DNA of 64,000 nucleotides from Escherichia virus TH35: sequence record MT446408.1; one strand, given 5' to 3'. Every line of letters begins with the position of its first letter. The first letter of the stretch is position 1. The position numbers and the translations under genes are program-made. The notes under the pieces were generated by a model. That model saw only the letters and a program-made list of their open reading frames with translations. It was not told the origin of the DNA and ran no database searches. Positions 33,042 to 63,814 of this stretch are shown one piece after another.

Positions 33042-34460
33042 TTATTCCCCTTTCAACCAAGCTTCAAACGCTTCGTCAGTTGCTGCAGAATCCGCAGCGG
33101 CCTTTTGTTTTGCGACTACACGCTGTTTTTGACCGTGTTCAACGCCGCGCAGATAATTATCCACCACGTCAAACTCAGCACCATCAACGCACTTCAAGCC
33201 TAACTTTTTAGCGCCATATTTCGCTACGGACTTGGAGTCCATAGTTGCATGATCAAAGGCACCAACAACTTTAGACAGGCGCTGGTAGAGGCTATTCTTA
33301 CGAGCAGAATCAGCGTAGAAAGCAGCAACTGCTGAATCAGATGCCATTGAGTGTTCCCCTTTTGCTGGACCTGGCGACGCTTTCGCCGCTTTTGTCGGTT
33401 TGTCATCTTTTTCGACCGAAGCCCCCTTTACGTTGCTGTTTTGCAGGCCGCTAACCACATCTTCAGCTTTGTCGCAAGGTGATACATCTTCAGCCTTGAC
33501 TTCAACTTCTTCGTCTTTGACTTCGGCTTCAACTTCTTCTTCATCACCTACCGCGCCACCTTTCAGTTTTGCAATAAGTGCTTCGATTTGGCTGATCAGT
33601 TGCGGAAGCTCGCCGCCAGCGTGAGATTCAGTTTCAACTTCAAACTTCTCTTCACCTTCTGGAGTCTCTTCAGCTTCTGCTTTGACTTCTGGATCAACCA
33701 TCACTTCTTCACGTTCTTCGGTTGAATCCTTCTCTTCTGCTTTCACTTCAACTTCGTCCTGATGAGCAGCTTCGGTGCTCTCTTCATTCAGAAATTGTTC
33801 GAGCGCAGGGATCAGTGATTTCAGCTGTTCAACAGCATTATCACGCGCTTTACCTTTTAACGGTTTTGGCATGTCTAAATCCTCGTTGGATGGTGTTACA
33901 GTCGTCAAACAAAGATGGTCAAAGCAACGACCATCCAGCACCCGTGCACCTGGTACTCGACCAACGTCCACGAGAGCAATGTGGTTGCCGCGAAGAGTTG
34001 TCTGTACCACTTCATACGGCTGCCCGTCAAACTCTCCAGACTGTATGATGAATTCACAGTCATAGCCCAAAGACAAGTCAACCTTTCCAGAATCGATGGC
34101 CTTCTTCAGACGACGGCTAAAAACTTTAAGGTCGCCGCGCATCCATGGCTTGTCATAATAAACATTGCCAGTTAGAACGCCATCAACGCCATACTCTTCG
34201 GGTGCTGTGTTATCCTCATCACCTTCGAATCCAGAAAGCATTTCGTGATTGTCGATGAAAGGGATATTTTTGAATGAATCTATCGCTTCGGGGTCTTTCA
34301 CCGCTGACTCTGGGCGATAAACTTTTACGATGCGATTCGGATCACCATCAAGTCCAACCTGACCTGCAGAATAATCAAAAATGCCAAATGACGAAATGGG
34401 ACAACCCACAATCGTCAAGAATCCATTTTTGTCAATTTCGCGTGCCGTTTGCATTCGCAT
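33042..34460 (-). CDS. Prohead scaffolding / protease-like protein with acidic coiled-coil central region
   Basis: ORF track 472 aa; long E/K/A/V-rich low-complexity segment; position upstream of capsid gene. Confidence 0.55.
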   Translation of the reverse strand: MRMQTAREIDKNGFLTIVGCPISSFGIFDYSAGQVGLDGDPNRIVKVYRPESAVKDPEAIDSFKNIPFIDNHEMLSGFEGDEDNTAPEEYGVDGVLTGNVYYDKPWMRGDLKVFSRRLKKAIDSGKVDLSLGYDCEFIIQSGEFDGQPYEVVQTTLRGNHIALVDVGRVPGARVLDGRCFDHLCLTTVTPSNEDLDMPKPLKGKARDNAVEQLKSLIPALEQFLNEESTEAAHQDEVEVKAEEKDSTEEREEVMVDPEVKAEAEETPEGEEKFEVETESHAGGELPQLISQIEALIAKLKGGAVGDEEEVEAEVKDEEVEVKAEDVSPCDKAEDVVSGLQNSNVKGASVEKDDKPTKAAKASPGPAKGEHSMASDSAVAAFYADSARKNSLYQRLSKVVGAFDHATMDSKSVAKYGAKKLGLKCVDGAEFDVVDNYLRGVEHGQKQRVVAKQKAAADSAATDEAFEAWLKGE

Positions 34461-34564
34461 CCACCCTCAAATAAGTATTGTGTATTATATCTAATGAAAA
34501 AAACTTAGGCAAACAATAATTATGGTTTGAATATGTATAACAACCGATATAGCCGCGCCTTAAT

Positions 34565-34835
34565 TAGTGTGATACGGATGATACGGATAAAATGAGGCGT
34601 ATTTTTATCCGTATCGGTGTATAAGCCGCGCTATCACTGGTGTGCTACGGATGATACGGATGATACGGATACTTTTCATATATAAGAGTTTATAAAAAAA
34701 AATAAAATTAAATTAGATATATAATTTTAAATTAATTTATTTGAATTCCTATAAAGTATCGCGGCAACGCGTATCATCCGTATCATCCGTAAGATTCTTT
34801 TGAAAACAACTACTTACTTGATACGGATGATACGT
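34565..34835. repeat. Iteron-like array of GATACGGAT 9-mers (both orientations) flanking a ~70-bp AT-rich core
   Basis: About 9 copies read directly; 21-mer ATCCGTATCATCCGTAAGATT is shared with 50974-50994. Confidence 0.6.
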
Positions 34836-34878
34836 CATTATACGCGTAAAATCCTGCGGCAATCCATTGCCAGGCGAT

Positions 34879-47079: not shown

Positions 47080-47105
47080 GGGTCGCTGTGGCGGCCCTTT
47101 ATTTT
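47080..47105 (+). terminator. Rho-independent terminator
   Basis: GGGTCGC-TGTG-GCGGCCC hairpin followed by TTTATTTT. Confidence 0.55.
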
Positions 47106-47109
47106 GCCT

Positions 47110-47745
47110 GCCGCGCAGGAGTGTACTGCAAATTTACTGTGGGCACAAAATAGTACGGTACTGTCTAGGACTTTTTCTTTGAAAAGTTAGTGGACCAAAT
47201 GTGTCGTATTTTGATTAGTGTACTGCAAATTTCATCAAGTACCAAAACGCACCAAAAGACCCATGCCCTAAAAACCACACGAACGCAATAATCAATCGCC
47301 GTTACAGTTTCCAGCGTTACAATTCGAAAGCGAATGATTCGATACACAATAATATGAAGCATAATGATTCGAAAGCGAATGATTGCGTGTAGTATAATAT
47401 CGGTGGGGATTATTCTAGATGCATGTAATTTCGCATGCGTACTATTTTCGGACGAAGGGTCGGCATATTCCTCGTTTTAGTTCGGAACGAAGGGAAAGTT
47501 TTGCGCCTTTATAAAACAACGACTTACGCAACCCGCCCTAACGGTCCGATATAGGTGTCTATATAAAACAAGGACTTACGCGATGTTCTCCATTTAACGT
47601 AATACCCGTTATGCGAACTAAGGAGCATCTCGAAGAAGATTATGAGGCGACGAAGGGAAGGATAAAGGAGTTTTCGCGGAGAAGCGCATCGAGATAGGGA
47701 CGAAGAAAAGCCGCGACTAAGCGCGGCCTATTAGTAACGGAAGGA
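47110..47745. repeat. Noncoding repeat-rich region (~640 bp) with several direct repeats
   Basis: TACTGCAAATTT x2, TTCGAAAGCGAATGATT x2, TATAAAACAA(C/G)GACTTACGC x2, ACGAAGGG x3-4 read directly; only one weak 65-aa ORF. Confidence 0.5.
47689..47712 (-). terminator. Rho-independent terminator for acidic paralog A
   Basis: On - strand GCCGCG-CTTAGT-CGCGGC hairpin followed by TTTTCTT. Confidence 0.45.
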
Positions 47746-47747
47746 TA

Positions 47748-48038
47748 TTATAAGGAGACAATTTTAAAATAAGTTACTTCGCCGCCGAGTTGCGGTACAG
47801 CGATATATTCGCCGCCGATTTCGGTAATCGTATAAACGAAGCCGTTAATCGTTACGCGATAGGATACGATGTCCTCGTCGCGATACTTGTAAAGGTCGAG
47901 GAAGTTGATCGGCTCATAAATAGACTCGATAATCGCGTCGACGTTAGAGAGATAAACGCTCTCTAAGGTTTCGCCAAATACGTTAGAGTTTTCGGAAGTT
48001 TCGACGCGAGCGGAACGGATAGCGGCTAAAGTAATCAT
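47748..48038 (-). CDS. Acidic small protein, paralog A (96 aa, net charge about -10)
   Basis: ORF track; RBS AGGAG; own promoter; similar to 48146-48448 and 48674-48958. Confidence 0.65.
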   Translation of the reverse strand: MITLAAIRSARVETSENSNVFGETLESVYLSNVDAIIESIYEPINFLDLYKYRDEDIVSYRVTINGFVYTITEIGGEYIAVPQLGGEVTYFKIVSL

Positions 48039-48105
48039 AATAATCTCCTAGTTGGTCGGGCGGGTAGCGACCTATTCGCTACCTCATCCCCTCTCGATAT
48101 AAAAC

Positions 48106-48134
48106 ATTATAGTATTAGTGTACGAAGAAGTAAA
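48106..48134 (-). promoter_or_regulatory. Sigma70-like promoter TTTACT-N17-TATAAT with upstream CGAAAAAGTGC element
   Basis: Read on - strand; near-identical to promoter at 48577-48604. Confidence 0.6.
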
Positions 48135-48145
48135 GCACTTTTTCG

Positions 48146-48448
48146 TTATTTTGCGATAAAATGTTTATAAGCTTTATCGCCTTCTACGTCGATATACTCG
48201 ACGATAATTAACGCTTCGTCGCGAGGCGTAACCGTCTCGATAAGGGTAACGGCTTCGTCGTCGGTCTTCGCGAAGCGGATGGCGCTACGTTCGGCGTATT
48301 TCATATCGTCGAAGGAAAGGCCGACGAAGGCGAACGCGCGGACCTTAATAGCGGTCCCGTCTAGTTCCGCGTTAACGGCTTTAAGAAGAGAAGCGACGGT
48401 TAAGCGGTCTTCGTCGTAAGTAAGGATAGAAGAGATTAAAGTGGTCAT
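48146..48448 (-). CDS. Acidic small protein, paralog B (100 aa)
   Basis: ORF track 48146-48505; start moved to ATG 48448 (RBS GGGAG) because the promoter -10 lies at 48505-48510. Confidence 0.6.
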   Translation of the reverse strand: MTTLISSILTYDEDRLTVASLLKAVNAELDGTAIKVRAFAFVGLSFDDMKYAERSAIRFAKTDDEAVTLIETVTPRDEALIIVEYIDVEGDKAYKHFIAK

Positions 48449-48504
48449 AATAAAACTCCCGATGCTAGTAGAAGGAAGGGCCATCGCCCGTCTCGATATA
48501 AACA

Positions 48505-48532
48505 AGTATACGCGAGTGTACGAAGAAGTAAA
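48505..48532 (-). promoter_or_regulatory. Sigma70-like promoter TTTACT-N16-TATACT
   Basis: Read on - strand upstream of paralog B. Confidence 0.5.
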
Positions 48533-48576
48533 GAAAAAAGATAAAATAATTTATCTCATTTTTATCGAAAAAGTGC

Positions 48577-48604
48577 TTTACTTTTTTCTACACTATATTA
48601 TAAT
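48577..48604 (+). promoter_or_regulatory. Sigma70-like promoter TTTACT-N16/17-TATAAT with upstream CGAAAAAGTGC element
   Basis: Read on + strand upstream of paralog C; about 60-nt leader to ATG. Confidence 0.6.
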
Positions 48605-48673
48605 GTACTCATATCGGGACGGGATGAGTTAACGAATAGGTCGTTAACGCCCGTCGAGAACTAGGAGTTTAAA

Positions 48674-48958
48674 ATGGCTATTCTTAACGTTTCTTCCATC
48701 CGTAACGCTATCGTCGAGAACTACGGCGTAAAACAAATTTTATCCGAAGTCTACGCCGCGAACGTAGACCAAACTATCGAGGCAGGTGGGGTAACGGTCG
48801 CCGAGGCTTTTAAACTTTACGCGGCGCTACCGGAATCGGACCGCGAAGCCTTCGAAGTAAACGTTAACGGATACTTCTTCGAAGCGGTCGAAATCGGTAA
48901 CACCTTACTCGTTATGGGCGAAGAAGAATTTGAGACCTTCTCCCTCGTCGAAGCGTAA
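48674..48958 (+). CDS. Acidic small protein, paralog C (94 aa, net charge about -12)
   Basis: ORF track; RBS AGGAG; own promoter and terminator. Confidence 0.65.
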   Translation: MAILNVSSIRNAIVENYGVKQILSEVYAANVDQTIEAGGVTVAEAFKLYAALPESDREAFEVNVNGYFFEAVEIGNTLLVMGEEEFETFSLVEA

Positions 48959-48972
48959 GAGAGGATTTTTAG

Positions 48973-48998
48973 AGCGTCGTGCGCGACGCTTTAATAAA
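48973..48998 (+). terminator. Terminator hairpin after paralog C
   Basis: AGCGTCGTGCGCGACGCT palindrome followed by TTTAATAAAATTCTTT. Confidence 0.5.
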
Positions 48999-49038
48999 AT
49001 TCTTTCGCGCCTAGCGCCCTAACAAATAGGAGTTTATT

Positions 49039-49665
49039 ATGGTTAGCTTAAATCGTTTCTCGACTAGCGGCGACGTTATCGCAACTAAGACCGCCGACCT
49101 CGTTGCATTTTATAATGCAAATTCCGGTTCGAAGCCGATTAAGAAATTTTCGGACCGCCGGACCGCCGAGGCTCGCGTAATAGCGTTAATCGAGTCCTTA
49201 AACGCGCTCGATGAGCCGTCCAACGAATCGCCCATCCCAGACGCGAAGTCGCGCGAGGAAGTGCCCAGCGATGTAAAAACGCATAAGGCGCGTGCGGTCG
49301 TTAAAAAGTCCGAGCCGACCCAGGAAGAACTCGACGCGATGACCGACGAAGAGTATGAAGCCTTCGTTAAGAGCGGTTTAAACGATAGTGCAAATTGCGT
49401 AGTGCAAAATGGAACTCCTTCCCATCGCCGTTCAAATAGCGAAGGTATTGCGAAAAGTTGGGATAACAAGGAAGTGGCGCAAAAGCGTCTCACGCGTAAC
49501 GGCGTTATGGTCGAGGGTGTAGGCGAGTTCAAATCGGTCCGCGTAGCGTTTGCTGCGCTGGGCTTACCGGATAGCAAGCACATTCGCTTCCGCATGAAGC
49601 TTAAAGAAGCTGGACGATTGAACTTTGAGTTCGGCAACAAGTCCTACACCTTCCAGATCATCTAA
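49039..49665 (+). CDS. Hypothetical protein (208 aa), mosaic composition
   Basis: ORF track; RBS AGGAG; 5' half CpG-rich like the acidic cassette; contains two ATAGTGCAAAT-type motifs at 49385-49410. Confidence 0.6.
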   Translation: MVSLNRFSTSGDVIATKTADLVAFYNANSGSKPIKKFSDRRTAEARVIALIESLNALDEPSNESPIPDAKSREEVPSDVKTHKARAVVKKSEPTQEELDAMTDEEYEAFVKSGLNDSANCVVQNGTPSHRRSNSEGIAKSWDNKEVAQKRLTRNGVMVEGVGEFKSVRVAFAALGLPDSKHIRFRMKLKEAGRLNFEFGNKSYTFQII

Positions 49666-49671
49666 TCGAAT

Positions 49672-49694
49672 GGCGGCCCTTCGGGGTCGCTTTT
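49672..49694 (+). terminator. Rho-independent terminator
   Basis: GCGGCCC-TTCG-GGGTCGC hairpin (one G-U pair) followed by TTTT; followed immediately by ATAGTGCAAAT. Confidence 0.5.
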
Positions 49695-49715
49695 CATAGT
49701 GCAAATTGGTGGCTT

Positions 49716-49979
49716 ATGAATACGCTTATTCTTATCGCTACGTTGTCCATCGGAAGTGGTCGCACCTTATCCCTTTATGATCATAGTGCAAATTGCGCTT
49801 ACCCAACGCGCGTTGCGGTGATAGTTAATAGTGCAAATCGAATGCTATTCGAGACTTGTTGGCGGGTCGATAACGAGAAAGGTCGGGTAGTCTTAGGTTA
49901 TAGTGCAAATCTGCTGGTGGAGTCGTTCGATTGGACGGTTGAAGGCCGTAAATTGTTACGGAAAGTGACTAAAAGATGA
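49716..49979 (+). CDS. Doubtful ORF (87 aa) carrying three ATAGTGCAAAT motif copies
   Basis: ORF track; GGTGG as possible RBS; coding status uncertain. Confidence 0.3.
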   Translation: MNTLILIATLSIGSGRTLSLYDHSANCAYPTRVAVIVNSANRMLFETCWRVDNEKGRVVLGYSANLLVESFDWTVEGRKLLRKVTKR

Positions 49980-50040
49980 CTTATAATAATACACTTTCTA
50001 ACGCGTTTATGGTTGTAACCTTCCCCGTCGTATTACCGAT

Positions 50041-50080
50041 GGCCCTAGAAGTGGAGAAAATGTGTTCTAGGGCCGTTTTA
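50041..50080 (+). terminator. Rho-independent terminator
   Basis: Perfect 10-bp stem GGCCCTAGAA/TTCTAGGGCC followed by GTTTTA, then ATAGTGCAAAT. Confidence 0.55.
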
Positions 50081-50093
50081 TAGTGCAAATTGG

Positions 50094-50582
50094 CTAGTGG
50101 CGGGAGAATTGCTCACCTTCTTTGGCCGCCTCTCCAAAATCCTTGTAGAAATCGTCCATAGAACGGCCCATTTTACTATTGCCGTTTTCATCAATCATCG
50201 TGATGCCGTAGATGATATTCAGTTCACGAATAGCATTAAGCTTGGCTGATGCCGCGACTTCTGGATCACGCACAAGCTTGACCAAATTGTGAATTGCACC
50301 TTTTACGCTCCACAAATCCTTTAGCGGCATTTCTTCCATACGCTTTTTGAAGCGCATTTTGTAGTACGGATTGCGTTGTGCGCAAAGGATTCGCTGGCCA
50401 GTGTAGTTATCCGTTGCAACTTCCATTCCAAATACTAGTGCAAAAGCTGCGCGCATGTCATGGCCCTGAATAACAAGGTCAATGAACTCATCGAATAAGG
50501 CCTGATTGTGCTCTGCAAATCGCGGGTCTTCAAAGTCTTCAGGCATCGCTACATAGTCTTGACTCATAGTGCAAAATCCCAT
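50094..50582 (-). CDS. Hypothetical protein (162 aa); motif copies overlap both gene ends
   Basis: ORF track; start codon overlaps an ATAGTGCAAAAT copy; no clear RBS; function not assigned. Confidence 0.55.
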   Translation of the reverse strand: MGFCTMSQDYVAMPEDFEDPRFAEHNQALFDEFIDLVIQGHDMRAAFALVFGMEVATDNYTGQRILCAQRNPYYKMRFKKRMEEMPLKDLWSVKGAIHNLVKLVRDPEVAASAKLNAIRELNIIYGITMIDENGNSKMGRSMDDFYKDFGEAAKEGEQFSRH

Positions 50583-50714
50583 AGTGCAAATTAATAGTGT
50601 GAATTATACAATGGATGAACATTATATTCAAGTGCAGATTGATGTTCATTATGGCTATAAACGTACACAAATCATATTGCGGAATGAATAGCGGACCGTG
50701 GTGCGTGGTGTACT

Positions 50715-51130
50715 GTTTGATACGTATAAAAGAAATCCATCCCTTTCGCCGCTTGTTATGCAAATCAATGACTTAGCCGCTGCTGGCTGGTTTAAGCGTA
50801 TCATGACGTATCATCCGTATTGCCGCAAGTCTTTGTTTTTACTTATATCTTACGGATAATACGTATAAATATAAGTTTAGTATAAGTATGAGGATATGAA
50901 AAAAATTAATTTAAATGTTTTTAAAATGGAGTTTATTTATTTTTGGAGTTTTATATATAACGATGCCCAGTTTTATCCGTATCATCCGTAAGATTAATGT
51001 ACAAGCCAGGCGCGGCAAGGGCTGTACACTGATACGGATAAAAAAACATGACGTATCATGACGTAAGGGTGTACCACTTTGGAAAAGAGGAATCCAGGAA
51101 CGGTGCGGCCTGCAGCCATGATACGCTTAA
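50715..51130. repeat. Second iteron-like array (GATACGGAT and GTATCATGACGTA repeats) flanking a ~90-bp AT-rich core
   Basis: Read directly; shares 21-mer ATCCGTATCATCCGTAAGATT with 34774-34794. Confidence 0.6.
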
Positions 51131-51397
51131 ATTTTAGCCGTATTTTAGGCGTATCAAATGTGTGCAAACAACACGTTTCACGACACTAAAATTTCAATCC
51201 ATAGATAATTCCTAACAAACACCACGGACCAATAGACACGATCTATGAAATATATTTCTAAATATTTCCGCACAATTAATAAATAAAACACAACCTCATA
51301 ATTATTCCATCGCAAAACACGACCCAAACGACAAAAGGCCGCATAAAGCGACCCATTGCACACATTCCATTCTTCAAAACACACAAATCAATGTTCT

Positions 51398-58389: not shown

Positions 58390-58668
58390 TCACTTATAAT
58401 ATTTAAACATTGCCGCGCAGAAGTCTTGCATGGCATTCTTAATGTGCTTCTTAAACAACGGGTCGTGCATATTTTCGACATTGGTCTTGAGTCGCACATG
58501 ACCGACGACCTCAAACGCAGTCGCTGGCATAGGTTCATAGATGTCATAATCGTTCAAGATTATATCGATATTTGGATTGGAAATCACGCAATAGTTTTTA
58601 CCAGCAGTAAATTGGTCATCAATGGATGATGTGCACTTGACAAAGAACACTTTGTATGTAGTAATCAT
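58390..58668 (-). CDS. Hypothetical protein (92 aa)
   Basis: ORF track. Confidence 0.55.
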   Translation of the reverse strand: MITTYKVFFVKCTSSIDDQFTAGKNYCVISNPNIDIILNDYDIYEPMPATAFEVVGHVRLKTNVENMHDPLFKKHIKNAMQDFCAAMFKYYK

Positions 58669-58874
58669 AGCGAGTCCTTCGGGCCGCAGTAGCGCCCGTC
58701 CAGGTAGCGGTCGTATTGGATTAAAGCGAATGTCTTCAATGAAAGGTTACGGCGCTTAAACAGGTGACCCGTTGATGGATTCTGCTCGTGCGCCGTTGGA
58801 TAAAGGCGTGACAGGTAGTGGATGAGGACTTGTAAAGCCCTACGTTGCTTTGTTATTCTCCCTTGTGTATTCAT
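58665..58874 (-). CDS. Hypothetical protein (69 aa)
   Basis: ORF track; weak RBS. Confidence 0.4.
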   Translation of the reverse strand: MNTQGRITKQRRALQVLIHYLSRLYPTAHEQNPSTGHLFKRRNLSLKTFALIQYDRYLDGRYCGPKDSL

Positions 58875-59064
58875 GGCTGAATCTACCCTCTGTCAATATC
58901 CGGTCGTGGATAACTATACCAGTACAGCGCAGGCGGTTAGCATTGCTTCGCGCCTTTGCTGCTTGATGAGGATTGAACAAGCCGAACAAACTAGCCTTAA
59001 AAGCAAACTGGTAATATTTGATTAAGGTACTAAGTGCTAACTCAATCCTGTCTAAATTAATCAT
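58840..59064 (-). CDS. Hypothetical protein (74 aa)
   Basis: ORF track; strong RBS GAGGTGA upstream of ATG 59064. Confidence 0.5.
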   Translation of the reverse strand: MINLDRIELALSTLIKYYQFAFKASLFGLFNPHQAAKARSNANRLRCTGIVIHDRILTEGRFSHEYTRENNKAT

Positions 59065-59103
59065 AATATCACCTCGTCAGAAAAGCAAATATTTTGATGA
59101 TGA

Positions 59104-59751
59104 TTATCCTGTGGCCTGCATATTGCGTACATACTTCTGCTCTAATGAATAGATGAAGTCGGCGACAGTCAATCCCTTCGTGTGCCATTCATACATGGTG
59201 AAGCCTGTATTCAGGAAATAGCCGCGCACCTTGTCCATCGCTTCAGCTTCCTCCAGTGAAGCCATCAGCGCGGCGACGTTGTCATAAGAAGGTACAAATC
59301 CCTTCTTGCGTAGCGCATTGCGCAAATCTTTAGTTCTGAAGCCAATCTTGCAAGGGTCATCGCGGCCCGTGGATGATGCAACCTTTGGAAGAGCAAGGAA
59401 CTCTTTGAGGAACATTGCAATGTTCAAGTCGCCTGCATCATCAAGCTTCTGGATTCGGTTGCGACCGCGACCCTTGAATTCACTCGCACGAGGGTGAGCG
59501 CCAAAACAGTGCGCCCCTTCCAGTTTAGGGTCAATGATCATCACATCTTTCCCAATGCGCAGCTCTACGTAGTAAAGATAAGACTCATCGACAAGCTTTG
59601 TGCGCTTGCAAGTGATTGAGTCCTTATCATAACCAAAGCCGCGCAACACGGTTGAGATCATTCGGTTCATTTCTTCGCCGTGAACGTCACTTTCTTTGTT
59701 CAGTTCACCAAGATGTTGAAAGAATTTAGCGATGTTGATTGCTTTATTCAT
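59104..59751 (-). CDS. Hypothetical protein (215 aa)
   Basis: ORF track. Confidence 0.6.
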   Translation of the reverse strand: MNKAINIAKFFQHLGELNKESDVHGEEMNRMISTVLRGFGYDKDSITCKRTKLVDESYLYYVELRIGKDVMIIDPKLEGAHCFGAHPRASEFKGRGRNRIQKLDDAGDLNIAMFLKEFLALPKVASSTGRDDPCKIGFRTKDLRNALRKKGFVPSYDNVAALMASLEEAEAMDKVRGYFLNTGFTMYEWHTKGLTVADFIYSLEQKYVRNMQATG

Positions 59752-61421
59752 CAGAATTCATCCTTATCTCTTCCCAAAGAACGTTTACGCTCAATAACCT
59801 TCTTCAAGAATTCAATATCTTCAGGGTCAGACTCATCGCGGATAAGATACGCTAAGATGGTCATCAAATCAGAAATGTATTCTCCTGCTTCATTCTTAAT
59901 CAGCGGCGTAAAGTACCCGCGCTGGTTGCGATAGGTTGCAGGCTCAAAACCAAGCTTCGACATGTGCGGCGCAAGGGTACGTGAGAAAGGCGACTTGCCG
60001 CACTTAGCTCTGAAGCCCATAGCGATTGCACCACTAGTGATGTGCCAGCGTCCGCTGTGATGTCGGTCATAAGGCGCGGTAATGATGACTTCAACAAGGT
60101 CGTTGTCGACCATCTCATCACGGATAACGCCGCGAGCGCGTTCCATTTCGTTCTTACTGAACTCAGTAAGCATACGAGATGTTTCACCAACAAAGGCATT
60201 GTAACCTGCTTCACCGTGCTTCTCCATCCACGCAGCGCACTCAGCCATCAGTTGCCAAACGTCTTCTTTCAAAGTGGAAAGGTCAGCTTGGAAGTCTTTA
60301 GACCAGTTCGGTTGCCCGTCCTTGTCAGCAAGTTGTCCAACAAAGATAGGGTACACACGACGGTTGCCCGTGTCGTCACGCTGCATACCTGCGTATTCGT
60401 TGCCGTCCATGATAGCAATCCACTGGCGTGGTTTAACCTGCGTGTCTTCAAATTTGAAGTCCAGGTCATCTTCCGTCTTAGTCAGGAATGCTTTCATGTT
60501 TTCGATGTCAGCCTTTTTAAAGCCTGTCATCTCGCCAACGTTCGCGATAATTGAGCGACCCGTAATAGCTCGCAAGAACGGGTTGAAGTTCTGCGCGGCC
60601 AAGTTCAACGGAATCGGTGTTGCGTGGCGGTCGTTCATAATAGCTTCGCAAAGTAGCTTACTAAAATAACTCTTCCCTGCGTTCTGGCCGCCGATGAGCG
60701 CAATGGAGATTGGCGCTTGACAGCCAGGGTTGGTCAGGCGGTTATAGAGCGATAGCCAAAAATACACACCGATTTGTCGGTTTAACTCTGTATCGAACGG
60801 TCGGAATAGCTCGATAAGGTATTTCTCAATGCGCGCAGTACCGTCCCATTCAGGCAGCTTCTTGTAGAAGAAGTCCATCAGGTCATCGCGCTGATAACGC
60901 ATGGCCCATTCCTTATAGGATTGAGCGACCTGACGTGAGTTTGGGTTGGACAGGCCTGCTGCGTCGACAGCGGCAACTATCTCTGTGACTTCCAACGTCC
61001 GGTCGGTGAATGTTTCTCCGCGATGGTCGACTAAGCGTCCACGAAAAGTATCTTTGTGAGGGAATGGGACAATGCCGCTTCCCTTATCAAACAACGCGTC
61101 GAAAACCGCATAACGGTTCATGTCACTCGTCCGGTCCGCCTGAAGAACAAAATCATCTTTCGTCGGTTTGTAGTGAGGGAACTTGATTACCTGAAGTGAG
61201 GCGAGCAAACGTGCTCTTTCAACCAAGTCTTCTTCACCGTAGCATTCCATGCGCTCTGCATCTTTCTCAACAGCCTTATGCTGGAGGCTGATTTTAGCTC
61301 TGGCGCCTTGCTGCTCTGCCGCTTGCATTTCTTCTGAAACACCAGCGTCTTGAATTTCGTCAAAGATTGCACCAAATTCATCACCTGTATCCTCTGGAAG
61401 ATTGTCATGTTCAATTGACAT
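59751..61421 (-). CDS. P-loop NTPase of the primase-associated D5/VirE-like helicase type
   Basis: ORF track 556 aa; Walker A IALIGGQNAGKS; directly downstream of primase gene cluster. Confidence 0.55.
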   Translation of the reverse strand: MSIEHDNLPEDTGDEFGAIFDEIQDAGVSEEMQAAEQQGARAKISLQHKAVEKDAERMECYGEEDLVERARLLASLQVIKFPHYKPTKDDFVLQADRTSDMNRYAVFDALFDKGSGIVPFPHKDTFRGRLVDHRGETFTDRTLEVTEIVAAVDAAGLSNPNSRQVAQSYKEWAMRYQRDDLMDFFYKKLPEWDGTARIEKYLIELFRPFDTELNRQIGVYFWLSLYNRLTNPGCQAPISIALIGGQNAGKSYFSKLLCEAIMNDRHATPIPLNLAAQNFNPFLRAITGRSIIANVGEMTGFKKADIENMKAFLTKTEDDLDFKFEDTQVKPRQWIAIMDGNEYAGMQRDDTGNRRVYPIFVGQLADKDGQPNWSKDFQADLSTLKEDVWQLMAECAAWMEKHGEAGYNAFVGETSRMLTEFSKNEMERARGVIRDEMVDNDLVEVIITAPYDRHHSGRWHITSGAIAMGFRAKCGKSPFSRTLAPHMSKLGFEPATYRNQRGYFTPLIKNEAGEYISDLMTILAYLIRDESDPEDIEFLKKVIERKRSLGRDKDEF

Positions 61422-62731: not shown

Positions 62732-63814
62732 CTATTTTATGCCACCTGCGCGACGATTTATCATATCAAGTTGATTCTCAATATAAGGCATGACTACTGC
62801 TTCAACAAAAGCGGTCCAGCCTTTCTTGCCTTCCCCTTTCCGGTGACAGTCGTGAGCACAACCGAAAACGAATTCATGTTCAGCACCAGGGATGGGGCCG
62901 CGAAAATAAGCGCCGTATGGGTCGCCGTTGGTGTGCTCTTCACCCCAAGGGCAAATGATTCGGCATTTACCTGACATGTTTTCAACCACATCGCCATCAG
63001 ACCCTTCGCCCATCTTATTGCGCGCAAGGATTTGCTGGGCTATCTTATACCAAACAGCATCATATTTGTATTCGTCAACGTCGATTTGAATTTCACGCTT
63101 TTGCGGCATAACGACGTGGAAACCGAAGGCTTGGCAAATCTCTTCGATTGTGTAGCGCAAAGAATAGTCTGCATGGACAAGTCGGCAGCGGAACGGGTCG
63201 CCGTTCTCATCGACATATTTATAGGGGCCGTCGTGAGTCACGCGCTTGTTGTTGATGCACCCAGGAACACGGCCCACGCGCGTCACGTCTTTAATCGTAT
63301 TGTCGCCGCCCTTCTTGAGTACCATGTTTACGAAAGACCCAAGGAATGCTTTGAACTGAATAAGATGGTCAATTGGCTCTTTAAAGAAATACCACAGCTG
63401 GTGGTTGTTCGGCGAAGTCTCAACGATGACGGTTGGCTTCAGACGCTCGAAAAAGAACTCCAAATCTAAATCGCCTTTAGACCCTTTACCGTGACCGATG
63501 TCGTCGACCATCATCGCCATGCCATGACCAAAGGCCGATTCCGTGCGCCAGTATCGCATCTCGCCTGTCTTTGGGTTGGGAGACTTACGCATTGAACTTA
63601 TGCAGGCGTAACCGTTCTGATGTTGCATCAGCGGCTTGCCAAGCTTCCAAGGCTTAGGCCAGAAGCTGCTGTTAATCTTTTTGCCGCGCTCGTCGGTCTG
63701 CACCGTTGCTTCAGGCGCAAACACGGTCATGACGCGTTCATCTTCTGGAATGCCTCTTTGGAGTTCCGTCAAAAACTCTTCGATTATTTTTGCTTCTTCT
63801 CTTAAACTAGCCAT
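62732..63814 (-). CDS. Archaeo-eukaryotic-type primase (primase-polymerase-like) with C-terminal zinc-binding region
   Basis: ORF track 360 aa; AEP-like motifs MMVDDIGHG, ETSPNNHQLW, RVGRVPGCINNK; Cys/His cluster CPWGEEH ... FGCAHDCH. Confidence 0.65.
   Translation of the reverse strand: MASLREEAKIIEEFLTELQRGIPEDERVMTVFAPEATVQTDERGKKINSSFWPKPWKLGKPLMQHQNGYACISSMRKSPNPKTGEMRYWRTESAFGHGMAMMVDDIGHGKGSKGDLDLEFFFERLKPTVIVETSPNNHQLWYFFKEPIDHLIQFKAFLGSFVNMVLKKGGDNTIKDVTRVGRVPGCINNKRVTHDGPYKYVDENGDPFRCRLVHADYSLRYTIEEICQAFGFHVVMPQKREIQIDVDEYKYDAVWYKIAQQILARNKMGEGSDGDVVENMSGKCRIICPWGEEHTNGDPYGAYFRGPIPGAEHEFVFGCAHDCHRKGEGKKGWTAFVEAVVMPYIENQLDMINRRAGGIK

Follow-up and report, generated by a model that had tools for sequence, protein, structure and literature searches.

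The window analysed here comprises 64,000 nucleotides of Escherichia virus TH35 (MT446408.1) and was placed by Megablast in the genus Wifcevirus, a group of PB1-like E. coli myoviruses with ~68 kb of sequence plus a direct terminal repeat of ~3.7 kb. Read in window coordinates from the annotation of the relative Bas100, the minus strand carries structural genes and the terminase large subunit up to ~41.5 kb; the plus strand then carries a tail-fibre block and a small-gene block to ~50 kb; and from 64 kb down to 51 kb the minus strand carries small genes and replication genes. Two repeat-rich elements are set into this layout: element A (34565-34845), in surroundings 99.7% identical to FEC19 by Megablast, and its twin, element B (50693-51231), in surroundings 95% identical to phage WFC.

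Element A is followed on the minus strand by the gene for the prohead protease (33042-34460; DUF2213, 5e-35; phrog_3778), with a sigma-70-like promoter between the two on the same strand (34484-34512; TTGCCT-17-TATAAT, matching 10 of 12 consensus positions). Element B stands upstream of the small terminase gene, terS (50094-50567, minus strand), which encodes 157 aa and is the first gene inside the terminal repeat. Its product matched the E217 small terminase in PDB 7UXE (phmmer, E=7e-34, residues 3-147) as well as phrog_4783, and a TerS annotation is also present in phage Mansfield. The gene starts ~125 nt from the inner edge of B and ~360 nt from the chromosome end described below. Between B and terS lies a sigma-70-like promoter (50603-50631, minus strand; TTGAAT-17-TATAAT, 10 of 12 positions, a consensus match only), and a terminator-like hairpin is found upstream of B. 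The direct repeat CATAGTGCAAA occurs twice at 50565-50590, overlapping the start of terS, and its copies form two in-frame ATGs on the coding strand (ATGGGATTTTGCACTATGAGT…); annotated starts differ, giving 157 or 162 aa.

Among the replication genes are those for a VapE-like (SF3-type) helicase (59751-61421, minus strand; PF05272, 1.6e-28), 8.6 kb from B in the window and a candidate alternative binder of the repeats, and for a RepB-type primase (62732-63814, minus strand; PF16793). Relatives annotate both genes as ‘DNA primase’. Some 25 small ORFs separate the helicase gene from B in Wifcevirus and in Pantoea phage Kyle; in Pbunavirus the two are adjacent.

Architecture of the two elements

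A preliminary description of this DNA had noted a second copy of an iteron-plus-AT-rich element, with a ~90-bp core, at 50715-51130 in the early region. All of the building blocks that it listed were recovered in both elements, as was the AT-rich core, at measured lengths of 105 bp in B and 93 bp in A. The element proved to be larger, extending over ~50693-51231 as a nested dyad of inverted-repeat pairs, and ‘early region’ is an imprecise label for a site that lies across the edge of the direct terminal repeat, immediately before the small terminase gene.

Both elements consist of head-to-tail arrays of a 9-10 bp unit in mirror orientation around an AT-rich core of ~100 bp, with extra units and inverted pairs outside the inner arrays. 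In A, arrays at 34570-34592, 34602-34616 and 34644-34672 lie on one side of the core (34673-34765, GC 0.15) and arrays at 34769-34796 and 34818-34845 on the other. B is a nested dyad-symmetric platform containing inverted-repeat pairs I1, I3, I5, I9 and I16, and its outer brackets, GGACCGTGGTG (50693-50703) and CACCACGGACC (51220-51230), form the outermost inverted pair. The core of B (50867-50971, GC 0.20) is flanked by an inner-left array, ATCTTACGGATAATACGTATA (50846-50866, plus strand), which is an arm of I1 and matches the reverse strand of a 21-mer with three mismatches, and by an inner-right array (50975-50995, minus strand), which is that 21-mer itself, ATCCGTATCATCCGTAAGATT, identical to 34776-34796 in A and kept in all B variants. 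Further out on the left are an outer array of 9-10 bp units, GCGTATCATGACGTATCATCCGTAT (50796-50820, minus strand), and a single unit, TGATACGTATAAAA (50718-50731); on the right are the outer arrays TGATACGGATAAAA and then CATGACGTATCATGACGTAAG (51030-51067), followed by additional single units at 51119-51131 and 51143-51158.

A census of these repeats set the pair apart from the rest of the window. The 21-mer is present in exactly two copies, at 34776 and 50975, where chance would predict 0. Allowing up to one mismatch, GATACGGAT was matched 25 times against 10.3 expected, a count reached in 0 of 100 shuffles, and the matches are concentrated in A and B; GTATCATGACGTA is found exactly at 50798 and 51053 in B and with one mismatch at 34831 in A. 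TGATACG, the core of the 9-10 bp unit, occurs 22 times in the 64 kb, 16 of them within the elements (eight in each), and the complete genome of Bas100 contains no TGATACG clusters beyond the A and B pair. The elements have 46 canonical 8-mers in common; random windows of the same size averaged 6.2 and reached 23 at most.

Across the genus, A retains 95-99.7% identity and its repeats are better preserved than those of B. The left half of B is conserved genus-wide; the right half is variable, yet keeps its repeats and GCGGC boxes. This right half (window 50930-51240) differs in about half the genus, for example in WFH and RCIP0319 (our loci L014 and L015), where the alternative version keeps a three-unit array, GCGGC boxes and some single units, the remainder being unrelated. 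In WFH, the right half of B (gtataaagtatagcggcgacgcGTATCATCC…) is closely similar to element A, suggesting that the two have exchanged sequence.

Structural features of other kinds were also surveyed. A contains a near-perfect 30 bp inverted repeat and folds strongly as DNA (z=-7.1), whereas B does not (z=-1.6), so that cruciform or hairpin formation was rejected as a common property. An Rfam scan gave no match in B; the only hits in A, to hairpin-type models of miRNAs and sRNAs, scored 20-30 bits, below the gathering scores of 50-211. The 10-11 bp periodicity of AA/TT in the cores, a sign of wrapping, reached a z of only ~2. In many lineages, the core edge farthest from the protease gene or terS, in A-type and B-type elements alike, often has a conserved box of the form TTTTCGAAA…CTATATAGG (examples are ctataagg, ctatatagac, ctttatagg and ttatatataaa); the core is therefore not merely AT-rich.

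Next to B, at 51160-51340, runs a non-coding, strongly strand-asymmetric stretch, poor in G and rich in A and C, with a GC skew of -0.24 at 51-52 kb; it ends at a terminator-like hairpin on the minus strand (51336-51354), and a 68-aa ORF at 51178-51384 is unlikely to be a real gene. A similar C/A-rich stretch lies between the B-type element and terS in E217 and in the L104 lineage, that of E217 holding a 40 bp direct repeat. Small ‘hypothetical protein’ ORFs have been annotated across B-type elements (E217 58488-59108; Mansfield 125-283; SP13 69-230; Bas100_0090/0091) and, because of the repeat and AT-core structure that they overlie, are probably not genes either.

Chromosome ends and the terminal repeat

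Ends were taken from deposited records and two papers, that is, from record start points rather than from raw reads. Five independently deposited Wifcevirus records, from at least three laboratories, have resolved direct terminal repeats. The WFC record, which includes both copies of the repeat, has a first nucleotide that aligns to window position 50927, in the middle of the core of B; those of WFH, Ro157lw and SP13 open at the homologous nucleotide, even with the next 15 bases different; and Mansfield, whose repeat was called by PhageTerm, also opens at the equivalent of 50927. The sequence at this cut reads …TTTTTAAAAT|GGAGTT…, and the junction AAAAT|GGAGTT is conserved in all B variants and absent from A. 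Wifcevirus records starting in A were sought and none was found.

The direct terminal repeat spans 47255-50927 (3,673 bp) and is present as a single copy in the window. Its right end, at 47254|47255 (…ACGCACCA|AAAGACCC), is common to Mansfield, Ro157lw, SP13 and WFH; the WFC deposit runs 80 bp further, to 47174, within the palindrome ACTTTTTCTTTGAAAAGT. Because the distal end falls on the same nucleotide in four of the five phages despite repeat lengths that vary from 3,533 to 3,899 bp, the cut there is sequence-specific, and the permuted, imprecise distal ends of headful termination were not encountered in Wifcevirus. The genus therefore combines exact terminal-repeat packaging with a pac-like start.

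Just outside the right end (region 47100-47260), two direct copies of AGTGTACTGCAAATTT were seen at 47120 and 47217. GTGTACTG has three copies in the whole window, the third at the inner edge of B (50708), and Kyle has the homologous CAGTACACTAATCA ~30 nt past its own right end. This repeat may be the signal for the termination cut.

The same arrangement of end and gene recurs beyond the genus. The TerS of Kyle is 43% identical to that of the window, and the Kyle record opens in its own B-type AT core, 356 nt upstream of terS, with a terminal repeat of 3,603 bp. In Pbunavirus, the records of five phages (Ab27, SIIA-P1, PA8P1, BrSP1 and Pa193) start at one nucleotide inside the core of the B-type element, which we call B'. 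Essoh et al. (2015) had found no terminal repeat and just one fixed end among their reads, lying ~7.5 kb upstream of the first nucleotide of PB1 (PMC4482731), and this is the same place as the record starts in the B' core. Published reports on Pbunavirus genome ends contradict one another: for the Pbunavirus Banzai, PhageTerm showed no significant end peaks (PMC12390725), and relatives have been reported as headful packagers. As judged from the records, the terS-proximal core in three genera is the site at which packaging-related DNA ends arise, under either specific or reportedly headful termination.

Conservation of the pair in diverged lineages

The pair was assessed for co-variation in four diverged lineages: Wifcevirus, Kylevirus, Pbunavirus and a lineage from IMG/VR. 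In Kyle, the core of the B-type element is flanked by different repeats (GGTTATT/AATAACC and ATATCCGAA), and these repeats recur in a second element, upstream of the head maturation protease gene. In the Pseudomonas phage E217 (Pbunavirus), long strings and the repeat GGTAATTTG are common to two elements, of which the first precedes the protease homologue and the second, B', lies between the VapE-like helicase gene and terS; the helicase orthologue is 45% identical to that of the window and its gene ends 240 nt upstream of B'. The IMG/VR lineage (contig 3300013308_000002, L067) has two clusters of a repeat of its own, GGAAAGTA. Within these four genomes, the two elements have 46, 39, 57 and 52 8-mers in common, against 5-16 between genomes. 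As 8-mers are shared far more within genomes than between them, whatever reads the repeats reads both elements.

Linkage of the B-type element to terS was found in every lineage in which terS was identified, namely Wifcevirus, Kylevirus, Pbunavirus and the L243 lineage, where the order is helicase, element, terS; the L067 locus stops at the gene after its second cluster and was left out of this count. The A-type element is equally regular in position. At least 15 diverged lineages have one ~250 bp ahead of the gene for the prohead protease, with an AT dip at about -200 to -310 from that gene and lineage-specific repeats on either side. In A' of Pbunavirus, conservation within the genus is uniformly high and motifs are indistinguishable from spacers.

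One motif, the GCGGC box, is mirror-symmetric about the cores in all this divergence. In A-type elements it reads as GCCGC in 32/34 cases on one side and as GCGGC in 29/31 on the other (Fisher p=8e-14), and in B-type elements from five lineages the figures are 10/11 and 17/17 (p=8e-7); the lineages tested are related, so these p-values overstate independence, although their repeat sequences have fully diverged. Enrichment of GCGGCA by plain count was discarded as an indicator, with 109 occurrences in the window; the significance lies in strand symmetry about the cores alone.

Packaging, replication and regulation as explanations

Element B is probably a pac-type packaging-initiation site, the cut in its core giving the left end of the chromosome. 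This reading makes B both the packaging start and the outer boundary of the terminal repeat, because the ends map in its core and terS adjoins it. A pac site should contain a reproducible end of virion DNA and should lie in or adjacent to the small terminase gene; deposited records place such an end within the site (five Wifcevirus, Kyle and five Pbunavirus), and terS is adjacent here as well as in Kyle, E217 and L243. The preliminary description had seen in the two elements either two origins or two binding platforms for one regulator that coordinates the early and late gene blocks. Two platforms for a single factor are well supported as a reading of the lineage-specific repeats common to both elements in four diverged lineages, but that account overlooked the core of B as the left end of the packaged chromosome beside terS. 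Coordination by one regulator gains little from our results: a sigma-70-like promoter does lie downstream of each element, but outside the arrays.

In the order of events that we infer, a sequence-specific protein would load on both arms of B, the likeliest candidate being the ring-shaped small terminase encoded next door, and the tandem 9-10 bp units would suit successive TerS subunits (the ring is decameric in E217). The AT core, bendable and easily melted, could thus be presented to the nuclease of the large terminase, which would make the first cut at 50927|50928. Packaging would proceed from the 50927 end towards terS, through the 3.7 kb repeat, and would stop one genome later at the second specific site, 47254|47255. 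The E217 TerS itself showed no appreciable DNA binding in vitro (PMC9611059).

With neither the cut sequence nor any Wifcevirus record start, A would therefore be a second platform for the same factor or factors; most likely it binds the same protein or proteins as B but is not a major site of cutting. It may act as a further platform for terminase, as an origin of replication or as a regulatory site. It weighs against the packaging reading that a pure packaging model leaves A without a necessary role.

The design of the elements also weighs against it, since inverted iterons flanking an AT core are the design of the SaPI ori and of viral SF3-helicase origins. By analogy, A and B might be two replication origins, the lineage-specific repeats of both arms bound by the VapE-like SF3 helicase in concert with the RepB-type primase, their AT cores melted and synthesis proceeding bidirectionally, an explanation that we hold as a tentative possibility. 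The terminus in the core of B would then be secondary, for instance if terminase cut a structure opened by the initiator or if synthesis from B duplicated the terminal repeat; the two readings are compatible and not mutually exclusive. Both elements do have the clustered short repeats beside an AT-rich unwinding region that characterise iteron origins, the phage does encode the helicase and primase, and in E217 and L243 the end of the helicase gene directly precedes B'. Both elements are insulated, each with a terminator ahead of it and a promoter that points away, and an origin would give A a clear function. The pair is moreover conserved in the reportedly headful Pbunavirus, so that fixed ends cannot be the sole reason for its existence. 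On the other hand, adjacency of helicase gene and B is lost in Wifcevirus and Kyle, whereas that of terS and B is kept wherever terS was identified; DnaA boxes are absent, TTATCCGTA being two positions off consensus; and GC skew in the window tracks gene orientation rather than the elements and, because it follows transcription, is uninformative on origins. Published GC-skew minima of Pbunavirus are located elsewhere (PMC12390725). An origin by itself would also leave unexplained the precise double-strand end in the core of three genera. Combining the two, A and B could be dual-purpose ori/pac modules, with fast-evolving repeats read by the VapE-like helicase, universal GCGGC boxes by the conserved small terminase and the two copies paired, a scheme that we think rather unlikely. 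Were it so, replication and packaging initiation would be assembled on the same dyad platform, twin-ring synapsis of the copies would sense the state of the concatemer, and priming at B would lead to duplication of the 3.7 kb repeat, with no genome wasted.

It is doubtful that the elements are upstream regulatory platforms at which one phage transcription factor, conceivably TerS itself, tunes the promoters of terS and of the protease-scaffold-capsid operon and so couples head production to the supply of terminase. Promoters with 10/12 consensus matches do lie 55-90 bp downstream of both elements, facing the same way, and Kyle and E217 have comparable promoters after their elements. However, they are outside the repeat arrays and so near consensus that they should need no activator, and a promoter scan at A and B returned no more sites than shuffled sequence; a dyad of 300-550 bp with an AT core far exceeds a typical operator, and the terminus in the core of B would go unexplained. 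The notion that one element, A or B, is a decaying or accidental duplicate of the other, without function of its own, is hardly credible. The two are homologous, and WFH-type phages have signs of exchange between them, but an A-type element with its own repeats occupies the same place upstream of the protease gene in the diverged lineages described above, its repeats are in better condition than those of B, and the GCGGC box is mirror-symmetric about its core. We exclude a functionless duplicate because of this conserved position, the symmetry of the box and the 8-mers shared within genomes, and the preliminary description's own counter-hypothesis of a remnant without function is contradicted by the lineage-specific repeats that the pair shares in four lineages.

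Several features of B have precedents. Repeats flanking a terminase cut are a known design, seen in SPP1 pacL/pacC/pacR and in P1 pac (PMC9611059). Like B, the SPP1 and P1 sites lie beside or within terS, have a central cut flanked on both sides by repeated recognition motifs (hexamer clusters flank the cut region of P1 pac) and direct packaging from the cut towards terS, a direction that for B is inferred. Unlike them, B has arms in which tandem 9-10 bp units form long mirrored arrays, together with a second box that is universal, around an AT-rich core of 100 bp; Wifcevirus termination is sequence-specific, with an exact 3.7 kb terminal repeat in place of a headful cut; and a full second copy lies 16 kb away, with TerS as candidate binder. 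T7-type processing of concatemer junctions resembles that of Wifcevirus in its exact ends, single repeat at each junction and cis-acting signals at the edge of the repeat, but its repeat is 160 bp rather than 3.7 kb, Wifcevirus has no phage RNA polymerase or pause site, and the recognition architecture of such junctions differs from that of B.

For the twin, the nearest precedents by analogy would be two-site origins and the T4 synapsis hypothesis. The former include SPP1 oriL/oriR (G38P), P4 ori/crr (alpha primase-helicase) and the SaPI ori (Rep helicase). As with A and B, two distant platforms have short repeats in common and one of them sits among the late genes, an AT-rich stretch is flanked by iterons, the repeats are lineage-specific and the phage encodes an SF3/VapE-type helicase, whose gene is beside one element in Pbunavirus; unlike these origins, B contains the end of the chromosome as packaged and keeps its linkage with terS wherever terS was identified. 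The twin-ring pac synapsis model for T4 proposes that rings of the small terminase pair two gp16 sites (genes 16 and 19) before the cut is made, one close to terS and a homologue in the structural-gene region. In T4, these are short homologies inside genes and the phage has no fixed ends, whereas A and B are large intergenic dyads and B is cut precisely; pairing of A and B on this model would be purely hypothetical.

GenBank records and a genome announcement already give the terminal repeat, its boundary by PhageTerm and the annotation of TerS. A literature search of incomplete coverage returned no description of the cis-element at the terminus, its twin or the conservation of both among PB1-like phages, nor of the coincidence of the Pbunavirus fixed end with a B-type element. 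Pbunaviruses (PB1-like phages) are widely used in Pseudomonas phage therapy, and their small terminase, of solved structure, now has a concrete conserved candidate site as its DNA target. With the cut position mapped to the nucleotide in three genera and the twin found upstream of the head genes throughout the group, it becomes directly testable what terminase recognises, how the exact 3.7 kb repeat forms and why two platforms persist. The results also bear on the engineering and rebooting of these phages, in which the ends and both elements have to be kept intact.

One record bears on A-type cores. That of Pseudomonas phage E215 (NC_042080.1, position 1) opens inside the AT core of A' (L013 12803 in E217 coordinates). 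As one case in ~290 records this start is not significant alone; A-type cores could also be cut, or could be prone to break assemblies.
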